Position numbers and translations under genes: made by a program
Notes under the pieces: model-generated
Seen by the model: the letters and a program-made list of their open reading frames with translations, nothing else
Database searches by the model: none
What the model was told of the DNA's origin: nothing
IMG/VR virus record: IMGVR_UViG_2600255157_000003
DNA length: 64,000 nucleotides
DNA from: an uncultured virus (IMG/VR IMGVR_UViG_2600255157_000003)
Lineage: Duplodnaviria; Heunggongvirae; Uroviricota; Caudoviricetes
Strand: one strand, 5' to 3'
In this document: in pieces, positions 2,231-61,838 of the stretch
How positions within the stretch are numbered: position 1 is the stretch's first letter
Layout of the letters: each line of letters begins with the position of its first letter

Positions 2231-3424
2231 TTATTTGGCAACATTCTGAAACTCAGGTATAGAGCTTATGAGCTGTGCCTTTACATCAATACTCTTCCTG
2301 TTCCGATGATAATGTTCCTCTGTGCATAAAATATCTGTATGTCCCATTTGTTCTATAATCAACCTGTTATCTATATGATTGTCAAGTAATATTGATCCAT
2401 AAGTTTTTCTTATTTTATGTGGAGACTTATTATATATTCCAAGTTTTTTACATATCCGCCATAATCGTGCCCTGACAGCTTGTGTTGAAATCCTGCTACC
2501 ATCTTTGACAAATATATATTCGTCAAATGGATTCTGCAACCTAAGTGATTTTGTAAGCCATTCGTAGTCTTTTGGAATAATTGCTGTGCGTACACCAGCC
2601 TGAGATTTGGGAAACTCTTTTATCAAGCGAACATATTCTCCATTTTCATTTTTGAATCTAGTTTCTGTCCTTCGTATTTTAAATGTGTTGCCTTCAAAGT
2701 CATCATGTTTTAACCCAACAACTTCCCCAACTCTGATACCAGTCACAAACATAAGCATGATTCCCAGATTTGTCAGATCGGGATTATTTTTAAGATAATC
2801 GATAATAATTGGCATTTCCTCTTCATTAAATACCTCTTCATAATCTTCTTTAATAACTTTTTTAAATTTAATTTCAGAAATGTCAATATCATTAAATATC
2901 TCTTCAACGTTAAACATAACCAACTTCCTTTTTTTAGCCCTTTTTAGGAATCCTCTGGTAATTGTTTTTAAATTCGAAAATGCTTTTGCAGTAAGATTAT
3001 GATACGCAATCTGTTCTTCCAAAAACTCCACAATTTGATTTTCATCTATTGATTTGATTCGATATTTGCCAAATTCTTCGTAATGTCTGTTAAATACTTG
3101 ACAGTTTCTCAGGTGTGTTGCTTCTGATATCTTCTTTAATTCAAGTCTCCGATTATTCCATTCCTCAAATACGTCAGTAATTGTAGGATCTTCCAGTTCG
3201 TCTTCCCAATATTCAATTATGTCATCTTCCAGATCTTTTTTGATTGTTTTTTTCTTTAATACCCTTCCCTTCTCTTTGTTTGGAAGATAAGTGTACCAAT
3301 TACCATCTTTCCCCTTCCATATTTTGTATGGATGCTTTTTTAAAATTTCTTCTCTTTTTTTCATTTCAATTTGCTCTTGCACAAATGACATATCTATCAT
3401 ATCATTGTCAATAGCAAATTTCAA
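2231..3424 (-). CDS. int: Tyrosine recombinase / phage integrase
   Basis: TGIRVGE (Arg), HKIRKTY (HxxR), MGH...HY catalytic motifs; converges on the tRNA 3' end. Confidence 0.93.
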   Translation of the reverse strand: MKFAIDNDMIDMSFVQEQIEMKKREEILKKHPYKIWKGKDGNWYTYLPNKEKGRVLKKKTIKKDLEDDIIEYWEDELEDPTITDVFEEWNNRRLELKKISEATHLRNCQVFNRHYEEFGKYRIKSIDENQIVEFLEEQIAYHNLTAKAFSNLKTITRGFLKRAKKRKLVMFNVEEIFNDIDISEIKFKKVIKEDYEEVFNEEEMPIIIDYLKNNPDLTNLGIMLMFVTGIRVGEVVGLKHDDFEGNTFKIRRTETRFKNENGEYVRLIKEFPKSQAGVRTAIIPKDYEWLTKSLRLQNPFDEYIFVKDGSRISTQAVRARLWRICKKLGIYNKSPHKIRKTYGSILLDNHIDNRLIIEQMGHTDILCTEEHYHRNRKSIDVKAQLISSIPEFQNVAK

Positions 3425-13818: not shown

Positions 13819-14700
13819 TCATTGTTTGTACTCAAATTTATTTAACCACTCTTCTACAGGTTTCTTTTTACTCTTTCCATTAATATTGCCCTTGGTTCTC
13901 CCTTGAGAAAGTAGATAATTTTTATTTGAGCCTTCTAATTTAATGCCTTCAGATATGTAAATGGGTGCATTGTTCCATATTTGTCTTTCTAGTTCATATA
14001 CATTAAACGAATATCCATATTGTTGAGTATTTTGATATGGCGGATCAATATATATGATAATATTTTTATTCTTTTTAATATCCCATTCTTCATCAAGAAT
14101 ATATATAAAATCAAATACATCCATACAATAGCCATGTAATCCTTCTGCATATTTGCAAAGCAACTCTATTCTTTTATATAAATTATCTGGCATTGGCATC
14201 ATGGGATTTACAGGACTCTTTCTGTTACTTGTTTTTGTTGGCAACCAATAATCTCTTAATCCTCCTGCCTTACACCATTTATTATTTTCTACCCATGTTG
14301 CTGTTGAACCAAAAGCACATGCTTGTAAAAATAAGAAGTGATATGGCAACATATTTTTATCAACAGTATTTGAAATAATATTAGAAGCATATTGCTTTAT
14401 TTTTGTTATATCTCTTGGAATAGAATTGACAAAATCATTAAACAGTGATAATTCAAATGTACTATTGCCAATCATTTGCCAAACCAAACCCCAAGGAGAC
14501 TTATCCACCATATGAATATTTTGAGGTTTAACTCCTCGATTAAGTAATTCTACACTTATTGCTCCACTCCCACAGCAAATATCATAAAACTGTGTACTAT
14601 CATTGATTCTATTTTCTTCAAAAAATATATCTACGATCTGTTTTGCTAGTCGTTGTTTACCACCCTGATAACTGCAAGGAATTTCTAATTTTGATGTCAC
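13819..14700 (-). CDS. Dam-like (D12 class) DNA adenine methyltransferase
   Basis: SYQGGKQRLA, YDICCGSG, IDPPY. Confidence 0.85.
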   Translation of the reverse strand: MTSKLEIPCSYQGGKQRLAKQIVDIFFEENRINDSTQFYDICCGSGAISVELLNRGVKPQNIHMVDKSPWGLVWQMIGNSTFELSLFNDFVNSIPRDITKIKQYASNIISNTVDKNMLPYHFLFLQACAFGSTATWVENNKWCKAGGLRDYWLPTKTSNRKSPVNPMMPMPDNLYKRIELLCKYAEGLHGYCMDVFDFIYILDEEWDIKKNKNIIIYIDPPYQNTQQYGYSFNVYELERQIWNNAPIYISEGIKLEGSNKNYLLSQGRTKGNINGKSKKKPVEEWLNKFEYKQ

Positions 14701-22028: not shown

Positions 22029-23362
22029 GGAACTGTTAATAAATTAATCCTTACAATTGGGTTTGATTTTATAATTCCATTTTCCCAGCTGTTCATACGG
22101 AAAAAGATTGACTTGGGCAAGTTCCTCATCAGATATTTTTCGTCCAGTCTCATAAATATTGTTGTCTACAATACAATCGATTTTTAGACCATTTTGAGTA
22201 GTTGTTCCGGATATCAGACTAACAACAGTTTCAATATCAATAAGCGGCTGACCCTGCCAGTTTTTGGAAATGTAGCAGAACATTCTGTGTTCTATCTTGT
22301 TCCATTTTGATGCTCCTGGAGGATAGTGTGATATCATGACTTCAAGTCCGGTGTAATCTGCAAACTCCTGTAATTCGCATTTCCATGCCCGGCTGCGGGA
22401 AGAATTACTGCCACCGCCATCACATGTTATGTAGATCCTTTTAGATTCAGGAAATGTATTTTTCCCACAAATGTCCCACCATGCTGCGATGCTGGTAACA
22501 GCAAACTCTGATGTATCATGGTTTGTTCCAAGATTAATAAAACCAGTGTTACTGTTTAACACATAAACCCCATATGGGCTGACTTTGCCCAGTTCAGCAA
22601 AAGGAAAGTCATGATCCAGTACCTTGCGCGGATCCTTGGACTTTCGGTATTCTGCTCCGTTGTTCTTAAAATTGCCAATGTTTTCTTTCTTCTTTGTATC
22701 AACGGAGATTACCGGATCGCCGGTCTCAAGATACTGTTTCGCCAGATCATTAATGATCCCAAACTGTTCATCACGGTCAGGACTCGGTTCACCGACCTGC
22801 AGCATTTTCTGGTTTACCTGCTTGCTGTATCCCATATCTGTAAGCAGCTGGGATATTTTTACATAGCTAATCTGTATCCCATATTCATCAGACAGGACAG
22901 CTTCTATTTTTCGCAGACTCATGCTTTGTGGAATCCAATGGATTACTTTGGAAGGATCACCATACGTCTGACCATCAATAATCTTTTCAATAGCGTCAAT
23001 AACTTCTGGATGATGTTCTACAAAAGGTTTGCGTCCCGCTCCTTCTCTACGGATTCGCCCTCCGGACACAATTTCATCACAGTTGTTTGCTTCGATATTT
23101 CCAGAGTGCAGAGTAGAGAATGCAGCTCCTGTCAGTTCTTTGACATGAGTTGCCCCGCCTCTTCCATATACTTCGGTTGCCTTACCAAGAAGGATACGTT
23201 TTTGTTTTTCATCTACAGAATTATTTATCAGTAATATCAATTCGTCAAGTTTTGAAATATCAACATGTATAGCCATTTTTTCCTCCAATACAATTGCTTA
23301 TATTGGAAGATAGTATAGCACAACTTGGTATATTTTGTAAGTAGTTATTTATTAACAGTTCC
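22029..23362 (-). mobile_element. ISAzo13-family insertion sequence, 1334 bp
   Basis: Perfect 16-bp terminal IRs GGAACTGTTAATAAAT (22029-22044 / 23347-23362); 3-bp TSD TAA (22026-28 / 23363-65). Confidence 0.9.
22044..23288 (-). CDS. ISAzo13-family DDE transposase
   Basis: ISVDTKKKE, DHDF, TCDGGGSN, SKWNKIEHR, WNY motifs. Confidence 0.9.
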   Translation of the reverse strand: MEEKMAIHVDISKLDELILLINNSVDEKQKRILLGKATEVYGRGGATHVKELTGAAFSTLHSGNIEANNCDEIVSGGRIRREGAGRKPFVEHHPEVIDAIEKIIDGQTYGDPSKVIHWIPQSMSLRKIEAVLSDEYGIQISYVKISQLLTDMGYSKQVNQKMLQVGEPSPDRDEQFGIINDLAKQYLETGDPVISVDTKKKENIGNFKNNGAEYRKSKDPRKVLDHDFPFAELGKVSPYGVYVLNSNTGFINLGTNHDTSEFAVTSIAAWWDICGKNTFPESKRIYITCDGGGSNSSRSRAWKCELQEFADYTGLEVMISHYPPGASKWNKIEHRMFCYISKNWQGQPLIDIETVVSLISGTTTQNGLKIDCIVDNNIYETGRKISDEELAQVNLFPYEQLGKWNYKIKPNCKD

Positions 23363-28734: not shown

Positions 28735-30000
28735 TTATAGTGGTATATTTACGACTAACGGATGTGAACCTGCACCCACTATCCCATTGTCAAAAACGTT
28801 TGGGAATACTTTTTTCATTATCTGATAACTACCATTTACATCTGCATTTATCTTTTCTCCTTCCTTCGTTACAAAAAGTCCTCTATGCACTCTTCTCGAT
28901 TTATCATAATTTCCTTTTACTGGCTGCTCACCATCAATAAAACTCGTTCCACTTGTATAACTCTCATCGGTTGTCTTAAATATAATCCCCTCTGCTTCAC
29001 ATTTATAAGCCAGTCTTTGAACTATACTCAAATATGGAATACCAACAAATTTCTGATTCACCTTTTTACTCATATTACTTTCTTGTTTCCATCCAGGATT
29101 ATATCCACAGACCAAAGTATCAATATTATTCTCTTTGCAAAAATCAACCACTATTTTTGTAGATTTCTGAATATAATCATCTATTTTATGATTTCTCTTT
29201 ATGGTGAATCTTCTCATCTCATTTGAATAATCTCTGTTATATCTTTTCTTTAGTTCTGATTGTTTATCAGCAATCATTTTGTTATAATACTGATTCACAG
29301 ATTTCAGAGGTTTACCATTTATGATAAAAGGTTTAATTCCGCAATTTGTTGTAATAGTCATAAGATTATCAATTCCTAAATCAATAGATGCTATTCTATC
29401 AGAATTATCTTCTATATCAGGAACATCAATCTCATAAACAACTTCCATTATGTATTCGCCATTTTTAGGTACAAATCGTAACTGAATTAACTTCTTATCT
29501 TCTGCAATCTTTGTCATAAAAGTATCATTCATCACCTTTAATGGCTTCCAACAGAAAAATATATATCTATTTTTTATTTTAAATTTATGATTATCTAATC
29601 CACATTCATATCTACCTTTATCTTTATCAATATATTTTGGTATTTTAGGTCTTCCACAATATTTACTTGGATTTTTACCATAATCTTTTATACTTTTAAA
29701 GAATCCATTCCAAGCTTTATCTAACTTTCTTAAAGTTGCTTGTCCTACATTACTACCAAGTTCTCTATACGGATCAGAGTCCTTACACAAATTGAATAAC
29801 TCGTTATACTTAATCCAATTTGCATTTTCTCTTAACCCTTCTTCTTTTTCTTTGGAAGTCTGTATAAATTCTTGTCTGATTATATAATTACCATAGTTAT
29901 ACATATTTTTAGACTTCCAACATAACTCATCTATAATTGAAAAGAATTTATTGTTTTTCTTTATTCTATGTTGCTCTACTCTTGTTGTTTTTATTTTTAT
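28735..30000 (-). CDS. tnpB: TnpB RNA-guided nuclease, no tnpA; start probably ATA near 29994-30000
   Basis: SKNMYN, IDLGIDNL, GYNPGWKQ, DESYTS, INADVNG. Confidence 0.9.
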   Translation of the reverse strand: MKIKTTRVEQHRIKKNNKFFSIIDELCWKSKNMYNYGNYIIRQEFIQTSKEKEEGLRENANWIKYNELFNLCKDSDPYRELGSNVGQATLRKLDKAWNGFFKSIKDYGKNPSKYCGRPKIPKYIDKDKGRYECGLDNHKFKIKNRYIFFCWKPLKVMNDTFMTKIAEDKKLIQLRFVPKNGEYIMEVVYEIDVPDIEDNSDRIASIDLGIDNLMTITTNCGIKPFIINGKPLKSVNQYYNKMIADKQSELKKRYNRDYSNEMRRFTIKRNHKIDDYIQKSTKIVVDFCKENNIDTLVCGYNPGWKQESNMSKKVNQKFVGIPYLSIVQRLAYKCEAEGIIFKTTDESYTSGTSFIDGEQPVKGNYDKSRRVHRGLFVTKEGEKINADVNGSYQIMKKVFPNVFDNGIVGAGSHPLVVNIPL

Positions 30001-30161
30001 CACTCCTATAAATCTACACTGTTCTAAAACTCTTAAATGCTCCAATGGTATGTATTGTAGGTTTACTACCATATAAATTCACACTGTTTTAAAACCTGAT
30101 CTTAGTTCTACATCAAGCGTATATAGGTTTATTACCTCATAAATCTATACTGTTTCAAAAC
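29995..30161 (-). CRISPR. Degenerate mini CRISPR array: 3 x 36-nt repeats, spacers of 30 and 29 nt
   Basis: Repeats 30126-30161, 30060-30095, 29995-30030 (GTTTTRRAACAGTRTRRATTTAT...); period 66/65. Confidence 0.7.
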
Positions 30162-42366: not shown

Positions 42367-43188
42367 CTATTCTTCTTTTGTAAAATTCAACATTTCATCT
42401 TTTGCTCTCTGGTAGAAATTACGGTCAATTTCAAAACCGAAAGCACTTCTACCAAGCTCATAAGCGGCTCTCAGTGTTGTGCCTGAACCAGCACAAGGAT
42501 CAATAACCACATCTCCAGCATCAGTAAATATCTCAATCAGCCGTTTTAGAACTGCTACTGGTTTCTGTGCTGGATGGATCTTTGGTATCTCTTTTCCATC
42601 CTTCTTCCATTCAAACCAGTTAAAGATCATATGCCCTGTTCCTGGAATATTTTTACCATTCTCATCAATCTGAATACCATTTCTGAATTTTGGCAACTTG
42701 TCACGATACAAAAGCAACGCATACTCTGTAGCACCTACAACACGCATATTAGCTTTAAGAACTTGTGGACTATAATTTTTACAGAACACAAGTGGTATGT
42801 AATGAATAAATCCATGCTTCTCTGCTGCTTTGATAAGAGTCTGAATCTGTTCAAATGAGCAGAAAACAATCATACAAGGTGAATTACTGCTTCTGCCTCG
42901 TGGTACTGGTTTCGTATCATCTTTTTTAAGCATCTTGGAACAAAAGTGAAAATACTCATACAGATTAAAATTGAAATCAGAATTGAATGCCGCCTTACCA
43001 GCTAATTTACTTTCACCTTTTTTATTATCTCCTCCGTTGTACCACATCGGATTTGAACCGTAAAAATTATTTCCTACGTTATAGGGAACGTCTGCTATGA
43101 TTAATTGAGCAGGACGAATTGCATATTTCTTATAATTCTGCATAGAGTCTCTATACAGTTCACACTTAATTTTCTTTTGATATTCCAT
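42367..43188 (-). CDS. N6A/N4C DNA methyltransferase (beta-type motif order)
   Basis: ADVPY, HPAQKP, DPCAGSGTT, GFEID. Confidence 0.88.
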   Translation of the reverse strand: MEYQKKIKCELYRDSMQNYKKYAIRPAQLIIADVPYNVGNNFYGSNPMWYNGGDNKKGESKLAGKAAFNSDFNFNLYEYFHFCSKMLKKDDTKPVPRGRSSNSPCMIVFCSFEQIQTLIKAAEKHGFIHYIPLVFCKNYSPQVLKANMRVVGATEYALLLYRDKLPKFRNGIQIDENGKNIPGTGHMIFNWFEWKKDGKEIPKIHPAQKPVAVLKRLIEIFTDAGDVVIDPCAGSGTTLRAAYELGRSAFGFEIDRNFYQRAKDEMLNFTKEE

Positions 43189-43320: not shown

Positions 43321-44346
43321 TCATTTATTTATTTCTTTTTTCTTCTTGTCCATCCCCTTATAAAATTCTTTGTATTTTCTTGTGTACTCGTAACTATCGC
43401 CAAAAATATTATTTACAGCTACAAATAATTTTGGTTCATACTTCTCTACAGCAATCAATTCTTCTTCAAAATCTCTTCCAAAAGGACAGCAAGCGCAACC
43501 AGTACGTTTGAATCCGTATTCACTATAACACTTACTATGTATTATATTATAATGTTCATCATATTCTATTTTATCTATATCCTTATACCAAAATAACGGT
43601 CTGTAATTATCATATCCGCTTCCATTTTTGTCAAAGCAACTCTTATAAGCAGTTGATCTAACTCCTCCCTCTGCTTTTCTTACACCCACTATTTGTAAGT
43701 CATAATCATTTTCACTTAATAATTTATGGGCAACATCTTTTTTAGCATATTTGCAACATAAATTTGATATTTGAAAAGTTGGTGGATTTTTAATCAGAAA
43801 TTCTTTTAACCATTTATTTTGTTTAATATTAAATGCAGGTGATTTTTTCTTATTACACCACCATTCTAATGCCGATTTACATTTTGGATATTCTGAATAT
43901 AATTCATCAAAATCTCTATCTTCAAACTTGAAATGATATTTCTGTAATCGTCTTATCATCTCACTGACATGTTTTGAAATAAAAGGTTGACCATATTGTT
44001 TACAAGTCAACGGAATTGGTTTTATAGCTTTATATTCTTTAATCTCTACTTCATATTTATCTTCAAGATATCTTAAATGGTCTTTTGTTGCTTGATACTC
44101 CAAACCAGTATCAAACCATACATACTCAATTTTATTGTCTTTGTCACATTTTGTACAAATATCCAACATTACATCACTATCTGATCCCCCAGATATTGAG
44201 CAAACTATTTTCTTATATTGGGTACTGTTTATTTTTGACCATGCTCTTACTAAATTATCACCTATTGTCTGGTTCTGCGGAGCATTACTAATTAATTCCA
44301 TCAGATCAGCAGGTTTTGAATTTATATTTTTATCTTTTCCTTGCAA
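43321..44346 (-). CDS. PAPS-reductase-family PP-loop protein
   Basis: SISGGSDS, DTGLE, CCKYAKK, GVRKAEG, RTGCACCP. Confidence 0.82.
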   Translation of the reverse strand: MQGKDKNINSKPADLMELISNAPQNQTIGDNLVRAWSKINSTQYKKIVCSISGGSDSDVMLDICTKCDKDNKIEYVWFDTGLEYQATKDHLRYLEDKYEVEIKEYKAIKPIPLTCKQYGQPFISKHVSEMIRRLQKYHFKFEDRDFDELYSEYPKCKSALEWWCNKKKSPAFNIKQNKWLKEFLIKNPPTFQISNLCCKYAKKDVAHKLLSENDYDLQIVGVRKAEGGVRSTAYKSCFDKNGSGYDNYRPLFWYKDIDKIEYDEHYNIIHSKCYSEYGFKRTGCACCPFGRDFEEELIAVEKYEPKLFVAVNNIFGDSYEYTRKYKEFYKGMDKKKKEINK

Positions 44347-44629
44347 TTACTGTATTTACAAGGTATGCGCATACATATTACCTAGAATTACTTGTATATC
44401 TCCTTTCATAGTCTACTGAATTGCTGATTTTTTATTGACATTTGCAACTGCCAATAAAAATATAATTTCTTCTGCTTACTCTATTTCATCTTCTATACAG
44501 CGGATAATTTTACCGATGAAATTGGCTTTCTATTGGGTATCACACCCATTTTATGTAGACAACATTGTGTACATAAGGCATTAGAAGTACCTCTATCCAA
44601 TAGTCCTTAAAAGACATTTTGGAATACTT

Positions 44630-45517
44630 TTATTTATTTTCTTTCACACATTCCATAATTCTATTTTTGCCAGTATTAAATATCTCTTCATCATTCTCAA
44701 TACAGATAATCTTCCTGCCTGTCCTAATGGCAGCCACACCAGTTGTCATACTACCAGCCGTTGAATCAAGCACAGTATCACCCTCATTTGTATAGGTTTT
44801 AATTATTTCTTCTACTAAGGCTACTGGCTTTTGAGTTGGAGTTAATGCACACTTTTGGGTATCTTTGGCGAATAGCCAAACTGACTTAGGAAATCTCTCT
44901 GTACTGTCATATGTATGATTTTTGATTTCGTTGTAATTTGTTGACTGCTTACTATTTCTTTTGTGGGACGCTGTACTAACTTTTCTGATATGTCCGTTTG
45001 TTTTCTGAGGATTATACGTTGGTTGTTTCTTATAGAAAACACACATATCCTCATGATATCTCATTGGCATTCTATTAGCATTCTGGAACCCTGTAGGTTG
45101 TGTTTTCTCCCAAATGAGATTGTATTTCCACATCTCACGGTTGCTCTCCATAAGATCAGCGGTAAACATACCGTTTGCAAATAGAATAATTGCGCCATTA
45201 TCTTTAATGATTCTTTTATATTGAGTCCATAACCCCATAGACTTATTTTCTTCAAAATACGAAAGTGCACCATTATAATCAGTTTCTCCTTGCTTATAAC
45301 ACCACAAAAGAAAATCATCTTTATAAAATACCTTTGGTTTCTTTCTCACTTCTAAAGTTATATAGTCATTAAATGGAATTACTATATCCCAAGCATTCCT
45401 GGCGGTCTGCCCAAACGGAAGATCTGTGATAATTGCATCTATAGATCTATCAGGAATATCATCCATTAGTTTTAGACAATCACCTTGCCATAATTCATAA
45501 TTATTATTCTCAAATAT
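44630..45517 (-). CDS. N6A/N4C DNA methyltransferase; proposed ATA start at 45517
   Basis: GDCLKLM (upstream of the tracked ATG 45466), TDLPF, PTQKP, DSTAGS. Confidence 0.85.
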   Translation of the reverse strand: MFENNNYELWQGDCLKLMDDIPDRSIDAIITDLPFGQTARNAWDIVIPFNDYITLEVRKKPKVFYKDDFLLWCYKQGETDYNGALSYFEENKSMGLWTQYKRIIKDNGAIILFANGMFTADLMESNREMWKYNLIWEKTQPTGFQNANRMPMRYHEDMCVFYKKQPTYNPQKTNGHIRKVSTASHKRNSKQSTNYNEIKNHTYDSTERFPKSVWLFAKDTQKCALTPTQKPVALVEEIIKTYTNEGDTVLDSTAGSMTTGVAAIRTGRKIICIENDEEIFNTGKNRIMECVKENK

Positions 45518-46827: not shown

Positions 46828-46844
46828 GAATATTGAGGTTAATT

Positions 46845-47816
46845 ATGATAGATCCAGTAAAATCCAATTTGTTTAAATTATCTTCAAAGAAATATTTAAT
46901 GACACTATTAAATGTACCAACAAAAGAATATTTAAATCAAAACTTTACCGCAAAACAGATTAAGCCATATATACAAGCAAATCCAAAACCTCGCTTAATT
47001 GAAGTCCCTTCGGATTCTCTTAAAAAAATTCAGAAAAACATAAAATGTGAATTAAATAAAATAGAAGTTCCTTCCAATGTATTCTCTGGTATAAAAGGAA
47101 AATCTTATGTTGATAATGCTGTTATACACCAAAACTGTAATTTTCTTTTCAAAATAGACTTAACAGCATTTTTTCCATGCATAACTCGTGAAACAGTGTA
47201 TAAATTTTTTAAAGTTGATTTAAAAACATCTTCTGATATAGCCAATATTCTCACTAATTTTGTTACTATCGACTTAACTTTATGTGATATTCAGGAACCA
47301 GAACCTATTGAACAATTCCTTTTATCCAAGGGAATAAAAACTACAAATCATTTAATTTCTGGTTCTCCTGCAAGTCAAATCCTATCTTATTTAGCGAATC
47401 ATAATATGTTTGATGAACTACAAAATTTTTGTGATAAAAATGATATAATTATGTCTATATATGTAGATGATATTACTTTTTCTTCACAGCACGAAATTTC
47501 ACATAAGCACAAAGAAATAATTTATAATATTATTTTCAAATATTTATATAGACTTTCAAGATCAAAAGTAAAATACTACACAAGTATTTATCCAAAATCT
47601 GTTACTGGAGCTATCATTTCTCCTAATGGGAACCTCAGTATCCCTAACTCATTAAGCTATAAAGTAATAAATGAATTGCGTAATTATAAGAATAATCCAA
47701 ATGACGAACACTCTCAAAAGAGACTTCAGGGTTTAATAGTTGTTGCACAACAAACTGAACCAACAAAATTCAGTAATATTTATAATCATGTTCGCAATGC
47801 CACTATTAAAGCATAA
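46845..47816 (+). CDS. Retron-type reverse transcriptase
   Basis: NAVIH (NAxxH), IDLTAFF, SGSPAS, YVDD, VTG. Confidence 0.88.
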   Translation: MIDPVKSNLFKLSSKKYLMTLLNVPTKEYLNQNFTAKQIKPYIQANPKPRLIEVPSDSLKKIQKNIKCELNKIEVPSNVFSGIKGKSYVDNAVIHQNCNFLFKIDLTAFFPCITRETVYKFFKVDLKTSSDIANILTNFVTIDLTLCDIQEPEPIEQFLLSKGIKTTNHLISGSPASQILSYLANHNMFDELQNFCDKNDIIMSIYVDDITFSSQHEISHKHKEIIYNIIFKYLYRLSRSKVKYYTSIYPKSVTGAIISPNGNLSIPNSLSYKVINELRNYKNNPNDEHSQKRLQGLIVVAQQTEPTKFSNIYNHVRNATIKA

Positions 47817-57307: not shown

Positions 57308-58237
57308 TCATTCTATATAACTAAAAATATGTGCAATTACATCAACACACCACCCATTACCAATTGCTTCAAATCTTCTTGTTTTAGGAACACAATCCGT
57401 ATAATTATCTGGCAACGTCTGGAGTCTTTCTATTTCTACAGGACATGTCTTTTTATATGTATTATTACCAAGCCATAGATTAAACTTTGTTTCTGTTCTA
57501 CATCTTGGGACTGTTGGTGCTTTAGAATCTGGAAAATATGCTCTATCCTGCTGAGAGTAATACCCATGTCCTCCCAAATCATATTTCACATAATTTTTTG
57601 ATATTATCATTGTTTTTCCAATTCTTTCATCAACTTTTATGAGCGAAGGATCATTGACAATAATATCTTTAAACAACAACCCTTTATCTCTAGGCTGTTC
57701 TATATTTGGTATGTTTGTCCAGTAATTGCGTTTCCTTCTCTGTGCAGATACTAATGCAGCATCTATCATTATAGGTTTAACACCTAATTGATTTGATATT
57801 TCTAATAAAATATTATCTGGTATTCCTTCATTATTTTCATACAAAAAATATTTAGGTTTAACAGTTTTGATGCACTCAACATACTTCATAAAAAGTTTCC
57901 AACCCGTACCATTGGTATCTAATTCTTTTTTAGATTTTGCTGTTTTATTACATTTAGCTTTTGACCAAAAAGTACAAGGTGAACCGCCAATTACTATATC
58001 TATATTTTTATCAATGAATTCTGTGAAACTGGAGTCAAAAACATCACCGCATTGCACAGTATTTGGATAATTTTTCATTGTAATCTTTATAGCATTTGTC
58101 TCAATTTCAAAAGCATAATATTTTTTCACCTTTATTCCAACTCTCTCAAATGCAACTTGCCCACAGCTTATGCCATCAAACAAACTTAATACTGTTAATC
58201 CTTCCTCTTTTAAACTAAATCTTTCAATGGGAGTCAT
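57308..58237 (-). CDS. C5-cytosine DNA methyltransferase
   Basis: LSLFDGISCG, GGSPC, YENN, QRRKR, IGNGW. Confidence 0.9.
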   Translation of the reverse strand: MTPIERFSLKEEGLTVLSLFDGISCGQVAFERVGIKVKKYYAFEIETNAIKITMKNYPNTVQCGDVFDSSFTEFIDKNIDIVIGGSPCTFWSKAKCNKTAKSKKELDTNGTGWKLFMKYVECIKTVKPKYFLYENNEGIPDNILLEISNQLGVKPIMIDAALVSAQRRKRNYWTNIPNIEQPRDKGLLFKDIIVNDPSLIKVDERIGKTMIISKNYVKYDLGGHGYYSQQDRAYFPDSKAPTVPRCRTETKFNLWLGNNTYKKTCPVEIERLQTLPDNYTDCVPKTRRFEAIGNGWCVDVIAHIFSYIE

Positions 58238-58362
58238 GAACCCATGAAAGATTCCTAAATAACAAATTAGAGAAAGGATATAACAAGTAATTCCGGATAA
58301 GTTAGCGTTGCAACGCCTTGTAGATAAGGCATTTGAAAAGTAATAATAAAAGATTTATTCTA
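58211..58362. other. Putative invertible segment carrying the methyltransferase leader and start
   Basis: Sites TAAAC-taaatc-TTTCA and TAAAA-gattta-TTCTA have reverse-complementary cores; inversion gives in-frame MKSNNKRFSLKEEG. Confidence 0.6.
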
Positions 58363-58677
58363 TTGCCACTCTATTATTTCTCCAACAAACTTCTGAATTA
58401 ACTCATTTACGTTAGCTGGATATGTTTTTACCACATAATTTGTATCAACCACTATTTTTATTATGATGCTATTGTTATCGAAATTAATACCTCCAACTGT
58501 ACCTCCAGGCACTCTAATAGCAAGACACTTTTGATTTTTACACCATTCATCTGCTAATATGTAATGATGAAACATATCATAGTAATGTTGTTTGGAGATG
58601 CCAGAAATGTCATCTAACTCTTTAGTCAAATCGCATCTGTACTCATTACAGCCCGACATACGCTGTTCTAATTTCAA
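58360..58677 (-). CDS. Hypothetical protein
   Basis: GGAGG RBS, 105 aa. Confidence 0.55.
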   Translation of the reverse strand: MKLEQRMSGCNEYRCDLTKELDDISGISKQHYYDMFHHYILADEWCKNQKCLAIRVPGGTVGGINFDNNSIIIKIVVDTNYVVKTYPANVNELIQKFVGEIIEWQ

Positions 58678-58716
58678 TCTTTTGCCTCCATTTATAATTT
58701 TTCAGGAATTACCGAC

Positions 58717-58826
58717 TTGATTAAGTCATAAAGAATTGTTATAATCAGATTTATCAAGACGGTTTTCCGTTTTGTTACTTATAGACATCCTGTCCACTCG
58801 CCAAAGTATCAGGATGTCTATTTTTA
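58717..58826 (+). ncRNA. Putative sRNA gene, copy 2
   Basis: TTGATT-N17-TATAAT promoter; 12-bp stem 58781-92/58810-21 with TCGCCAAA loop and T run. Confidence 0.6.
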
Positions 58827-58837
58827 GTTTTCTACAT

Positions 58838-59227
58838 TCAAAAATATCTTTTCGCATCACTAGGCGTGTGTATATCATTTGGTTTTATCATTACTTTTCT
58901 TGAAAAGTAATAGTTTTCATCACATTTCAAAACATACATAAATGTCATATCTCCAAAATCATCAATTACCTTTCCTGCCATATGTCCAAAATAAATTGCA
59001 TCCTTATTTAATGGCTTAAAACAGCATAATCTACCTAATGGTATCTCACACTCAATCTTCTCTGTTTTATTTTCTTCTCTCTGACTATGTTCAAATGCCC
59101 TCAGTTCATCTTTTCCGATCCATTTTACCCATGCACCGCAATCATCACAATACAATCCGGTATTATTACCTTTTACTTCTGTATGTAGTGATATACTTCC
59201 ACATTTCTTACAACAATTTTGGTACAC
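58838..59227 (-). CDS. Zn-ribbon hypothetical protein
   Basis: CKKCGS..GLYCDDCGAWVKW. Confidence 0.6.
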   Translation of the reverse strand: MYQNCCKKCGSISLHTEVKGNNTGLYCDDCGAWVKWIGKDELRAFEHSQREENKTEKIECEIPLGRLCCFKPLNKDAIYFGHMAGKVIDDFGDMTFMYVLKCDENYYFSRKVMIKPNDIHTPSDAKRYF

Positions 59228-60800: not shown

Positions 60801-61838
60801 TCAATTACTAAATAATTCTTCTACATATTTATCCATATCATATCCCAATTTCACACAATTCCCATGGGATATATGATTTTTCCAAGCATTATAACTTTCA
60901 TAGAACTTTTCTTCACTTATCTTTCCATTCCTTACCAACCTGACCATTTTCTTAAATTTCTTTTTAGCTGCACGCTTGTTTTCGTTCTTCAGCTTACGGA
61001 TCACCTTGCCATCAGAAGTCACATATGTGTGAAATCCACAAAATTTAATTCCATTTTTAAATGGAATAATCTGTGTCTTACCATTCAATTCGAGTCCTAA
61101 TGTATACACAAATTTATAAATAGCACTTAAACACCACTTAGCATATTCCTTTCCCTGAACTATCAAATAGAAATCATCCATATACCTGCCATAATATTTA
61201 ACTCCGAGTTCCCCAGTGATGAAGTTATCTAAACCTGATAAATATGTAAGCGCATATACCTGGCTGACTTGATTACCAAGCGGAAGTCCTAATCCATCTG
61301 TGCTATCAATAAACTTTTCACATAGCCAATACACATCTTTATCTTCCACAAAATAACTTACAATATCTTTTAAAACATCATGATCTATATTGTAAAAAAA
61401 TTTACTGATATCTGCTTTTATAATCCAACAGTTATATCCATATTTACAATATGCCAGATACATATGCGCCTTTAAACAATCCAAACCATATAATGTACCT
61501 TTTCCTATTTGTCCTGCATAATTTGTCTGTATGAATTCTTTTTTCAGTATTGGAATTAAAACATTATCACATAAAGAATGCTGTACTATTTTATCTACAA
61601 ATGAACACGATTTAATAATTCTCTCTTTAGGTTCATATATTGTAAATTCATTATATTTTGATACATTATATGTCTTTGTCTCTAATCTTCTTTTTATTTG
61701 ATGAATTCCATCCAAAGCCATCACTTGAAATTTTTGACTACTTTTAGAAAATCCTTTACCTGATTTGGACTTTAAATATGCTTGATACAAATTACCGAAA
61801 TCTACTACTTTTTCAAAATCTGTTTTATCTTCTATCAT
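60801..61838 (-). CDS. DGR reverse transcriptase
   Basis: GKGT, KADISKFF, GLPLGNQVSQ, RYMDDF. Confidence 0.95.
   Translation of the reverse strand: MIEDKTDFEKVVDFGNLYQAYLKSKSGKGFSKSSQKFQVMALDGIHQIKRRLETKTYNVSKYNEFTIYEPKERIIKSCSFVDKIVQHSLCDNVLIPILKKEFIQTNYAGQIGKGTLYGLDCLKAHMYLAYCKYGYNCWIIKADISKFFYNIDHDVLKDIVSYFVEDKDVYWLCEKFIDSTDGLGLPLGNQVSQVYALTYLSGLDNFITGELGVKYYGRYMDDFYLIVQGKEYAKWCLSAIYKFVYTLGLELNGKTQIIPFKNGIKFCGFHTYVTSDGKVIRKLKNENKRAAKKKFKKMVRLVRNGKISEEKFYESYNAWKNHISHGNCVKLGYDMDKYVEELFSN

Follow-up and report, generated by a model that had tools for sequence, protein, structure and literature searches.

An invertible leader cassette before a prophage C5 cytosine methyltransferase gene as a probable switch of phage DNA methylation

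Introduction

The 5′ untranslated region (5′-UTR) switches of the Firmicutes species Clostridioides difficile (flgB, cwpV, and cmrRST, with the tyrosine recombinase RecV) are small invertible segments that lie in a leader, are bounded by short inverted repeats, carry no promoter, and act after transcription has started. We analyzed a locus that appears to be alike in these respects, namely a 124-bp segment (58225..58348) in front of a C5 cytosine DNA methyltransferase (MTase) gene (57308..58237, − strand) in a 64,000-nucleotide stretch of DNA from an uncultured virus of the Caudoviricetes (IMG/VR record IMGVR_UViG_2600255157_000003; the whole stretch is hereafter called the window). The window corresponds to G000:C12:187055-251054 in a host genome of 6.96 Mb and 40 contigs. 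A further likeness is found in fimS of Escherichia coli, a binary orientation switch with a 9-bp inverted repeat and poorly symmetric half-sites that is flipped by the tyrosine recombinases FimB and FimE; unlike the MTase cassette, however, fimS measures 314 bp, contains a promoter, is located entirely upstream of fimA, and has its recombinase genes adjacent.

Invertible promoters, 5′-UTR switches, hsdS shufflons, partial-intergenic and intragenic invertons, and prophage tail-fibre inversions are all already known from the literature. According to two studies (Milman et al. 2023, PMC9881135; Chanin et al., PMC10028968), restriction-modification (RM) and methyltransferase genes are enriched among inverton targets, and the prophage inversions reported there concern tail fibres. 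A third study (PMC10333322) suggests that invertible promoters may control methyltransferase expression. For the locus in the window, we consider it probable (roughly 0.7, judged from sequence comparisons) that the segment is a site-specific invertible cassette, i.e., a partial-intergenic inverton, which supplies alternative 5′ ends to the prophage C5-MTase.

Results

Inversion of the segment in nature

In the present orientation, the open reading frame (ORF) of the C5-MTase (57308..58237, − strand) begins MTPIERFSLKEE. Its product matches Pfam PF00145 (E 1.7e-28) from residue 15 to 308 against profile positions 2-322 of 324, which makes it a whole-protein domain, and PHROG 116 (DNA methyltransferase). 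When positions 58225-58348 were flipped in silico, an in-frame ORF of 310 aa starting with TTG was obtained. The top cluster representative in the protein search (P0001, 310 aa) begins LKSNNKRFSLKEEGLTVLSLFDG (LKSNNKRFSL...) and is the same as this flipped ORF at 310/310 positions, except for the notation of the TTG start. An earlier note on this DNA had predicted that the flipped form would begin MKSNNKRFSLKEEGLTVLSLFDG in frame with the MTase, which is what P0001 displays. The same note had held that a conserved MTPIERF start in all relatives would speak against inversion; 0 of the 120 homologue representatives begin with MTP.

Logan contigs of four runs (X1, X4, X5, and X15) were mapped on positions 57700-58900. 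This read evidence consists of assembled contigs, some of them short (146-163 nt), and run depths and uncovered parts are not counted as evidence. All three mouse-gut metagenome runs (X4, X5, and X15, from three studies) join the MTase body to the inverted segment, with opposite-strand joints at 58215|58357, 58224|58348, and 58225|58349. Since each joint has nine letters that fit both sides, the exchange lies within a 9-bp core common to the two ends. In the longest of the contigs in question (run X5, record 17; 3263 nt, depth 51.6), 57700-58215 is followed by inverted 58357-58257. Run X4 has the joint of 58224 with 58348 in record 10 (1152 nt) and the reciprocal joint 58225|58349 in record 11, both with 0 other letters, and in run X15, record 2 (1518 nt) ends in 11 letters that are the reverse complement of 58338-48 and record 7 holds the reciprocal (right) flipped junction. 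Flipped junctions had been expected in reads or relatives. A search of 400 family genomes gave a single close prophage relative, G187, and in it a 148-bp segment (93% identical) is inverted with respect to the three matches that flank it. The segment occurs in nature in both orientations, with breakpoints inside the 9-bp core and in several gene contexts.

That these junctions are assembly artefacts is extremely unlikely. Such an explanation can draw on the fact that all read evidence comes from assembled contigs, including those of 146-163 nt. However, the word length of the Logan assembler is far above 9 bp (the index words have 31 letters), and against words of that length a 9-bp repeat should not mislead a word-based assembly; the joint is moreover carried by contigs of 1152-3263 nt, and the same arrangements appear in independent collections (IMG/VR, GTDB genomes, ENA/JGI metagenome contigs, and a protein cluster).

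Anatomy of the cassette

The invertible segment lies between two putative recombination sites, i.e., the gene-side site a (58211..58226; TAAAC-TAAATC-TTTCA, core 58216-58224), which reads TAAACTAAATCTTTCA and contains the contig joints within its core, and the upstream-side site c (58347..58362; TAAAA-GATTTA-TTCTA, core 58349-58357), which reads TAAAAGATTTATTCTA. Their cores form a perfect 9-bp inverted repeat (58216-24 / 58349-57), as had been noted before. By a repeat finder it is lengthened to 14 nt at 86%, the arms being 124 nt apart. The outer arm of site a (GTTTA) is identical in every cassette-bearing relative with a gene-side site, and that of site c gives a −10-like TAGAAT on the − strand.

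A third copy of the site, b (58245..58260, + strand; TGAAA-GATTCC-TAAAT), forms the 3′ arm of a hairpin with site a. The repeat finder reports a 9-bp stem (58218-26 / 58245-53), which grows to about 14 bp when the mRNA strand is folded and then holds the ATG start of the present orientation (58235..58237, − strand; MTPIERF...) in its apical loop (z = -1.67; 10 of 200 shuffles fold as well). This ATG has no Shine-Dalgarno (SD) sequence, which agrees with the former description of a start placed in a hairpin loop with no good ribosome-binding site. The a:b hairpin is predicted on both strands, and the 142-nt cassette as a whole has a z of -2.23 (3/200 shuffles fold as well).

The leader module (58272..58335, + strand) contains an SD-like GAAAGGA, a closing helix ACAAG/CTTGT, a 12-bp palindrome GCGTTGCAACGC, and a TTG start (58333-58335), and points away from the MTase gene in this assembly. 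The segment carries both alternative 5′ ends of the gene, each of which reads in frame through the common core AAAGATTTA into ...RFSLKEEGLTVLSLFDG: the leader end offers the TTG start plus six codons (MKSNNK), and the other end a bare ATG (MTPIE) without a ribosome-binding site. At the ATG end, relatives differ by non-synonymous changes in codon 4 (I/N/V/D/Y), at first and second codon positions, a variation that fits a hairpin bulge better than a selected peptide.

Conservation of the cassette and of its repeat in relatives

A search of the phage database for close relatives returned distant MTase matches only, and a scan of viral contigs with the MTase protein gave relatives of just 28-39% identity. 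By pattern scans of viral, genome, and metagenome contigs, 15 distinct cassette contexts were obtained from related Lachnospiraceae prophages, all of which keep the ~140-bp cassette between differing flanks. Homology on the gene side ends directly after AAAGATTTA-GTTTA, and on the upstream side after AAAGATTTA-TTCTA, TTTTA, TTTCA, or ATTCA. Four kinds of C5-MTase were found downstream (judged by eye from motifs, in all contexts but L060), namely the type of the window (VLSLFDGISCG), a circularly permuted 457-aa type (G187), and the types marked by 'NFCEFDKYA...GGSPCQDFS' and 'ELCSGIGAQ'. Three of the kinds were found in both orientations: the window type (the window vs X4, X5, X15, and P0001), the permuted type (G187, L059, and L065 vs G167 and X15 record 3), and the 'NFCEFDKYA' type (L033 and L058 vs L034 and L037).

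The architecture recurs in G167, where the perfect repeat is another one, of 12 bp (TACTGCTTTTAT / ATAAAAGCAGTA), and the spacer measures 119 nt. The G167 counterpart of site b co-varies with site a (pairing read by eye), as it does in the second cassette of the window, at a PAPS-reductase-like gene (see below), and the repeat spacer is kept at 119-124 nt across the MTase, PAPS, and G167 cassettes. In its present away-facing state, G167 has no start codon in the open stretch, and a flip gives an in-frame TTG...SSSLAVLNGRPLR. Judging from these comparisons, the repeat is under selection. In G187 (L028:1715-3914), a variable slot between a conserved 101-aa gene and the cassette is occupied by a 259-aa gene and the 457-aa permuted C5-MTase; the same slot in the window holds one MTase only.

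Orientation of the leader and state of the gene

The leader module lies in sense to the MTase gene in 11 of the 15 contexts. Seven contexts have an intact repeat, of which four are away-facing (the window, L034, L037, and G167) and three leader-sense (G187, L035, and L058), whereas the eight with a damaged or missing site (L033, L040, L046, L059, L060, L061, L064, and L065) are all leader-sense (8/8 vs 3/7; exact test by hand 35/1365 = 0.026, the copies being related and not independent). A damaged upstream site reads TAATCTTT or TAATATTT in place of TAAATCTTT; L060 is without the left half, and L046 without the right site. This distribution suggests that the copies with a damaged or missing site are locked on. 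In L046 the leader's MESNNK is fused straight to ...VVLSLFDG with no site between, and several of the 120 MTase homologue representatives have SNNxK/ERxSL-like N-terminal extensions. Because all damaged copies are leader-sense, and because of the L046 fusion, the N-termini of the homologues, the ATG held in a hairpin without SD, and the absence of a start in G167, we infer that leader-sense is the ON state and that this assembly shows the OFF state. Since the segment occurs in both orientations and swaps the leader and start codon of the gene, it is very probably a switch by which the methylation of phage DNA is turned on and off.

It might be argued that sites a, b, and c are mainly RNA elements, in which the a:b hairpin alternates with a long-range a:c pairing over codons 5-8 to control translation, and that inversion is a side effect. 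The three sites do co-vary together in three cassette types, and the prediction of the a:b hairpin in both strands, with the z value given above, is in line with such a role. However, an RNA function leaves unexplained that both orientations are common among near-identical sequences, that an in-frame start codon is kept at the away-facing end, and that all copies with a damaged site a are leader-sense, and we regard this explanation as improbable.

A second cassette at the PAPS-reductase-like gene

A PAPS-reductase-like gene in the same window (43321..44346, − strand; Pfam PF01507, E 7.2e-15) lies behind a second cassette of the same architecture (44318..44469, − strand), which has repeat arms at 44318-33 / 44454-69, a hairpin at 44429-44 / 44445-60, and a leader at 44407-44344, and is presently leader-sense. 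The homology of the two leaders, which had been pointed out before, is borne out by a mean column identity of 78% in pairwise alignment. On the other hand, the MTase sites, the only matched pair noted before, are not alone, as the PAPS leader is flanked by its own repeat of 16 nt (15/16 match, 94%) with 120 nt between the arms. With a covariance model built from copies of the cassette, the PAPS copy reaches 74.8 bits (E 3e-11), partly by construction since this copy is in the model.

An in-silico flip of the PAPS cassette retains an in-frame TTG start. Among 120 PAPS homologue representatives, one (P0232) has an N-terminus like the flipped-form alternative and five begin at an internal Met (MELISNAPQNQ), which are hints only that this cassette might flip as well. 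The exact pattern of its far end had 0 matches in the viral contigs, and seven viral relatives plus G187 have a different type of PAPS leader, with no repeat of 9 bp or more. In this other leader type (L068-L074 and L076), an in-frame upstream ATG reads MALPHVNVDQLREERYI and is followed by a CCTCACG...CGTGAGG helix that runs into the TTG start.

A third leader-like match in the window (47929-47849, − strand) is weak (22.5 bits, E 0.28) and ends in AAGAATAAAACTTTCA. It faces the 3′ end of a + strand retron-type reverse transcriptase (RT) gene and may be a relic displaced by insertion.

Leader RNA, palindrome, and promoters

At the gathering threshold, Rfam matched only the tRNA-Gly in the window, and an E-value scan of the locus gave nothing over the leader. 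A resemblance of the leader to the SAM-III/SMK box is without support. The structure chosen by RNAalifold was other than the helix and palindrome described above, and does not co-vary. The closing helix ACAAG/CTTGT is invariant among cassette copies.

In the 12-bp palindrome, four of six pairs change on both sides between the MTase and the PAPS copy (0/500 shuffles reach that, in one comparison); all four of these changes come from the PAPS copy, and two are unable to pair in an RNA hairpin. Both palindromes (58316-58327, GCGTTGCAACGC; 44374-44363, GTATGCGCATAC) retain all six symmetric pairs. Because the central pairs that are kept cannot form in an RNA hairpin, this suggests a dyad that may act at the DNA level, e.g., as the site of a dimeric protein.

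A consensus scan, which is weak evidence, found no sigma-70-like promoter wholly within 58225-58348. The best-scoring ones either span the right site or fall outside it (− strand, TGGAGA-16-TAGAAT, 58384-58357; + strand, TTGAAA-17-TATTCT, 58333-58361), and the upstream outer arm reads TAGAAT, TAAAAT, or TGAAAT on the − strand across cassettes. Transcription may start at the cassette edge in both states, in which case control would be exerted at translation.

Site-specific cassette or rare accidents

Several observations weigh against a dedicated site-specific cassette. First, X1, the possible source run, gave one identical contig in the present orientation only (contigs drop minor variants). 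Second, the 9-bp repeat taken alone is at chance level, as the 64-kb window holds 169 perfect 9-mer inverted pairs with 50-300 nt spacing. Third, no recombinase gene is adjacent to the cassette, and among the recombinase matches in the host genome (91 tyrosine and 33 serine), 0/33 serine-type matches are on contig C12. Besides, the ATG end is in frame in 3/4 away-facing contexts (the AAAGATTTA-type copies), so the away-facing state may give some protein rather than none; the leader TTG is without a well-spaced SD of its own; and the leader RNA folds no better than shuffles (z -0.04 and -0.75).

The first three of these points would suit a history in which the inversions are rare accidents, caused by replication template switching or illegitimate recombination at a short repeat and each fixed per lineage, with neither a recombinase nor phase variation. 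We consider such a history unlikely. The same breakpoints recur across three gene contexts, G167 and the PAPS cassette show co-variation of the repeat arms at a preserved spacer of 119-124 nt, and damaged sites occur in leader-sense copies only (8/8). In addition, the flipped contigs of run X4 have 0 differences over 57700-58224 and 58349-58435, so the inversion event is very recent. Taken at the level of sequence, the inversion is real, recurrent, and bounded by sites.

Candidate recombinase and proposed mechanism

A weak candidate for the recombinase is a 340-aa tyrosine recombinase of the prophage, 24 kb from the switch (G000:C12:269043-270065; PHROG 216, 'integrase'), in which Arg, His-x-x-Arg, His, and Tyr are conserved. 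Its homologues in G402 (77% identity), G403 (30%), and G167 (27-35%) are encoded at distances of 18-27 kb from the cassette. With the same query, none was found in G401, G404, G405, G407, and G408, which bear damaged-site cassettes and are in some cases fragments or metagenome-assembled genomes, and G187 gave only distant matches of ~200 aa on small contigs; L058, L060, and L062 were left out of the search. However, full-length members of the candidate family also occur in G089 and in G000:C24, where the leader model finds nothing, and this too counts against the site-specific cassette. The co-occurrence with the cassette could be due to linkage in a single phage lineage. Several tyrosine recombinases of invertase size (~200 aa) are also present in the host, and no telling inverted repeats were found around the candidate gene. 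It is therefore a tentative and rather doubtful assignment that this protein is the enzyme that flips the cassette.

Read as 5-6-5, the sites consist of the half-sites TAAAA, TAGAA, TGAAA, and TAAAC around GATTTA; those of G167 are TAAAA-GCAGTA-TTCAA/GTTTA, and those of the PAPS cassette TAAAA-ATATAA-ATTCA/TTTCT. Tyrosine recombinases use sites of this kind, in which conserved A-rich arms enclose a private 6-bp centre, and they need identical overlaps in the partner sites, as is known from spacer variants of Cre/lox and FLP/FRT. Strands might be exchanged within the 6-bp overlap GATTTA, between TRAAA-like arms, by a conservative site-specific enzyme that is most likely a tyrosine recombinase. 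The wider 16-mer junction motif, which is not clearly enriched in the window (8 matches at ≤3 mismatches vs 3.83 expected; 4/100 shuffles reach 8), would be its recombination site. The one-base deletions in damaged sites alter the 6-bp overlap. Different overlaps (GATTTA for the MTase, ATATAA for PAPS, and GCAGTA for G167) would keep the cassettes from cross-recombining; given the need for identical overlaps, the MTase and PAPS cassettes, 14 kb apart, should be barred from recombining together.

In this mechanism, the leader-sense orientation would be expressed, and the orientation of the assembly would be OFF or much weaker at the level of translation. The purpose may be bet-hedging of 5-methylcytosine (5mC) in phage and host, i.e., protection from restriction enzymes vs exposure to methyl-dependent nucleases. 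A wider and more speculative proposal, which we hold to be possible with the odds against it, is that leader invertons of ~120 bp, each with a control leader and a start codon, form a portable and mutually orthogonal family in large Lachnospiraceae prophages. They would have TRAAA-N6-TTYWA-like sites with private 6-bp overlaps, and a single phage-encoded tyrosine recombinase would flip each of them independently before several C5-MTases and the PAPS-like gene.

Setting of the prophage

The window is within an integrated element of about 100 kb, the left end of which adjoins a tRNA-Gly(CCC) and carries a tyrosine integrase gene (window 2231-3424). Almost all genes of the element are on the − strand, as far as about C12:287,500, and their functions include replication, nucleotide and NAD metabolism, RNA repair, and several DNA modifications. 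Apart from the C5-MTase and the PAPS-reductase-like gene, the modification genes include a D12-class MTase (13819-14700) and two N6/N4 MTases (42367-43188 and 44630-45466).

The prophage also contains two RT genes. One (46833-47816, + strand) resembles retron St85-family RTs (E 2.3e-38, below cut-off), and for the other (60801-61838, − strand) the resemblance is to group II intron and Drt3a RTs, in both cases below cut-off. Three transposable-element genes (window 22044-23288 and 28735-30072, and L030:2571-3947) encode an ISAzo13-type DDE transposase, a TnpB (OrfB_IS605 / Cas12f-like TNB), and an IS110-family transposase. The remainder of the element (L030-L031, G000:C12:251000-290999) holds many conflict genes, including three PemK/MazF-like toxins, two Fic/DOC proteins, two Uma2 nucleases, a GmrSD-N domain protein, a PARG-like protein, RadC, and Thg1.

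Discussion

Phage orphan methyltransferases are usually viewed as constitutive anti-restriction genes. If the proposed switch is real, a flip of the initiation region would render methylation in phage and lysogen both heterogeneous and heritable, which would explain 'silent' methyltransferase genes in gut genomes and would help to understand a temperate phage that faces methylation-sensitive or methylation-dependent nucleases. If the family of leader invertons exists as well, combinatorial and heritable mixtures of DNA modifications could result, which would hedge classical against methyl-dependent restriction. Since the cassette is small and portable and comes in apparently non-cross-reacting versions, it may also be of use as a compact genetic switch for Firmicutes. 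For surveys of invertons, the locus indicates that 9-bp repeats, which are under most detection cut-offs, can bound real switches.

In the literature searched, supplementary inverton tables aside, no prophage cassette turned up in which the leader and start codon of an orphan C5-MTase are exchanged. The Gin/G segment of phage Mu and the Cin/C segment of P1 are similar in being phage-encoded inversions that alter a phage gene product, but Gin and Cin are serine invertases that act on tail-fibre segments of kb size, with the invertase gene adjacent. The mom gene of Mu is a phage DNA-modification gene restrained at translation by a start-codon hairpin (Com control), which recalls the hairpin around the present ATG, but no inversion is involved. 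As for the C. difficile switches, the MTase cassette differs from them in that it holds the start codon and the first 5-6 codons, so that the N-terminus changes with the orientation, in having a perfect repeat of just 9 bp, and in being prophage-borne, portable between genes, and without a linked RecV-like gene.

With the partial-intergenic and gene-altering inversions (PMC9881135; PMC10028968), the cassette shares an inverton that overlaps and recodes the end of a coding sequence. The cases reported there are mostly long swaps of homologous domains or 3′ parts (shufflon-like), whereas the 124-bp segment swaps the translation initiation region and 5-6 codons only. In Type I hsdS epigenetic invertons and inverton-like methyltransferase variants of the gut (PMC7672463; PMC11741434), inversion also leads to heterogeneous methylation. 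However, inversions of the hsdS type change the specificity of RM methyltransferases through their target-recognition domains, whereas the cassette described here is predicted to turn an orphan phage C5-MTase on and off.

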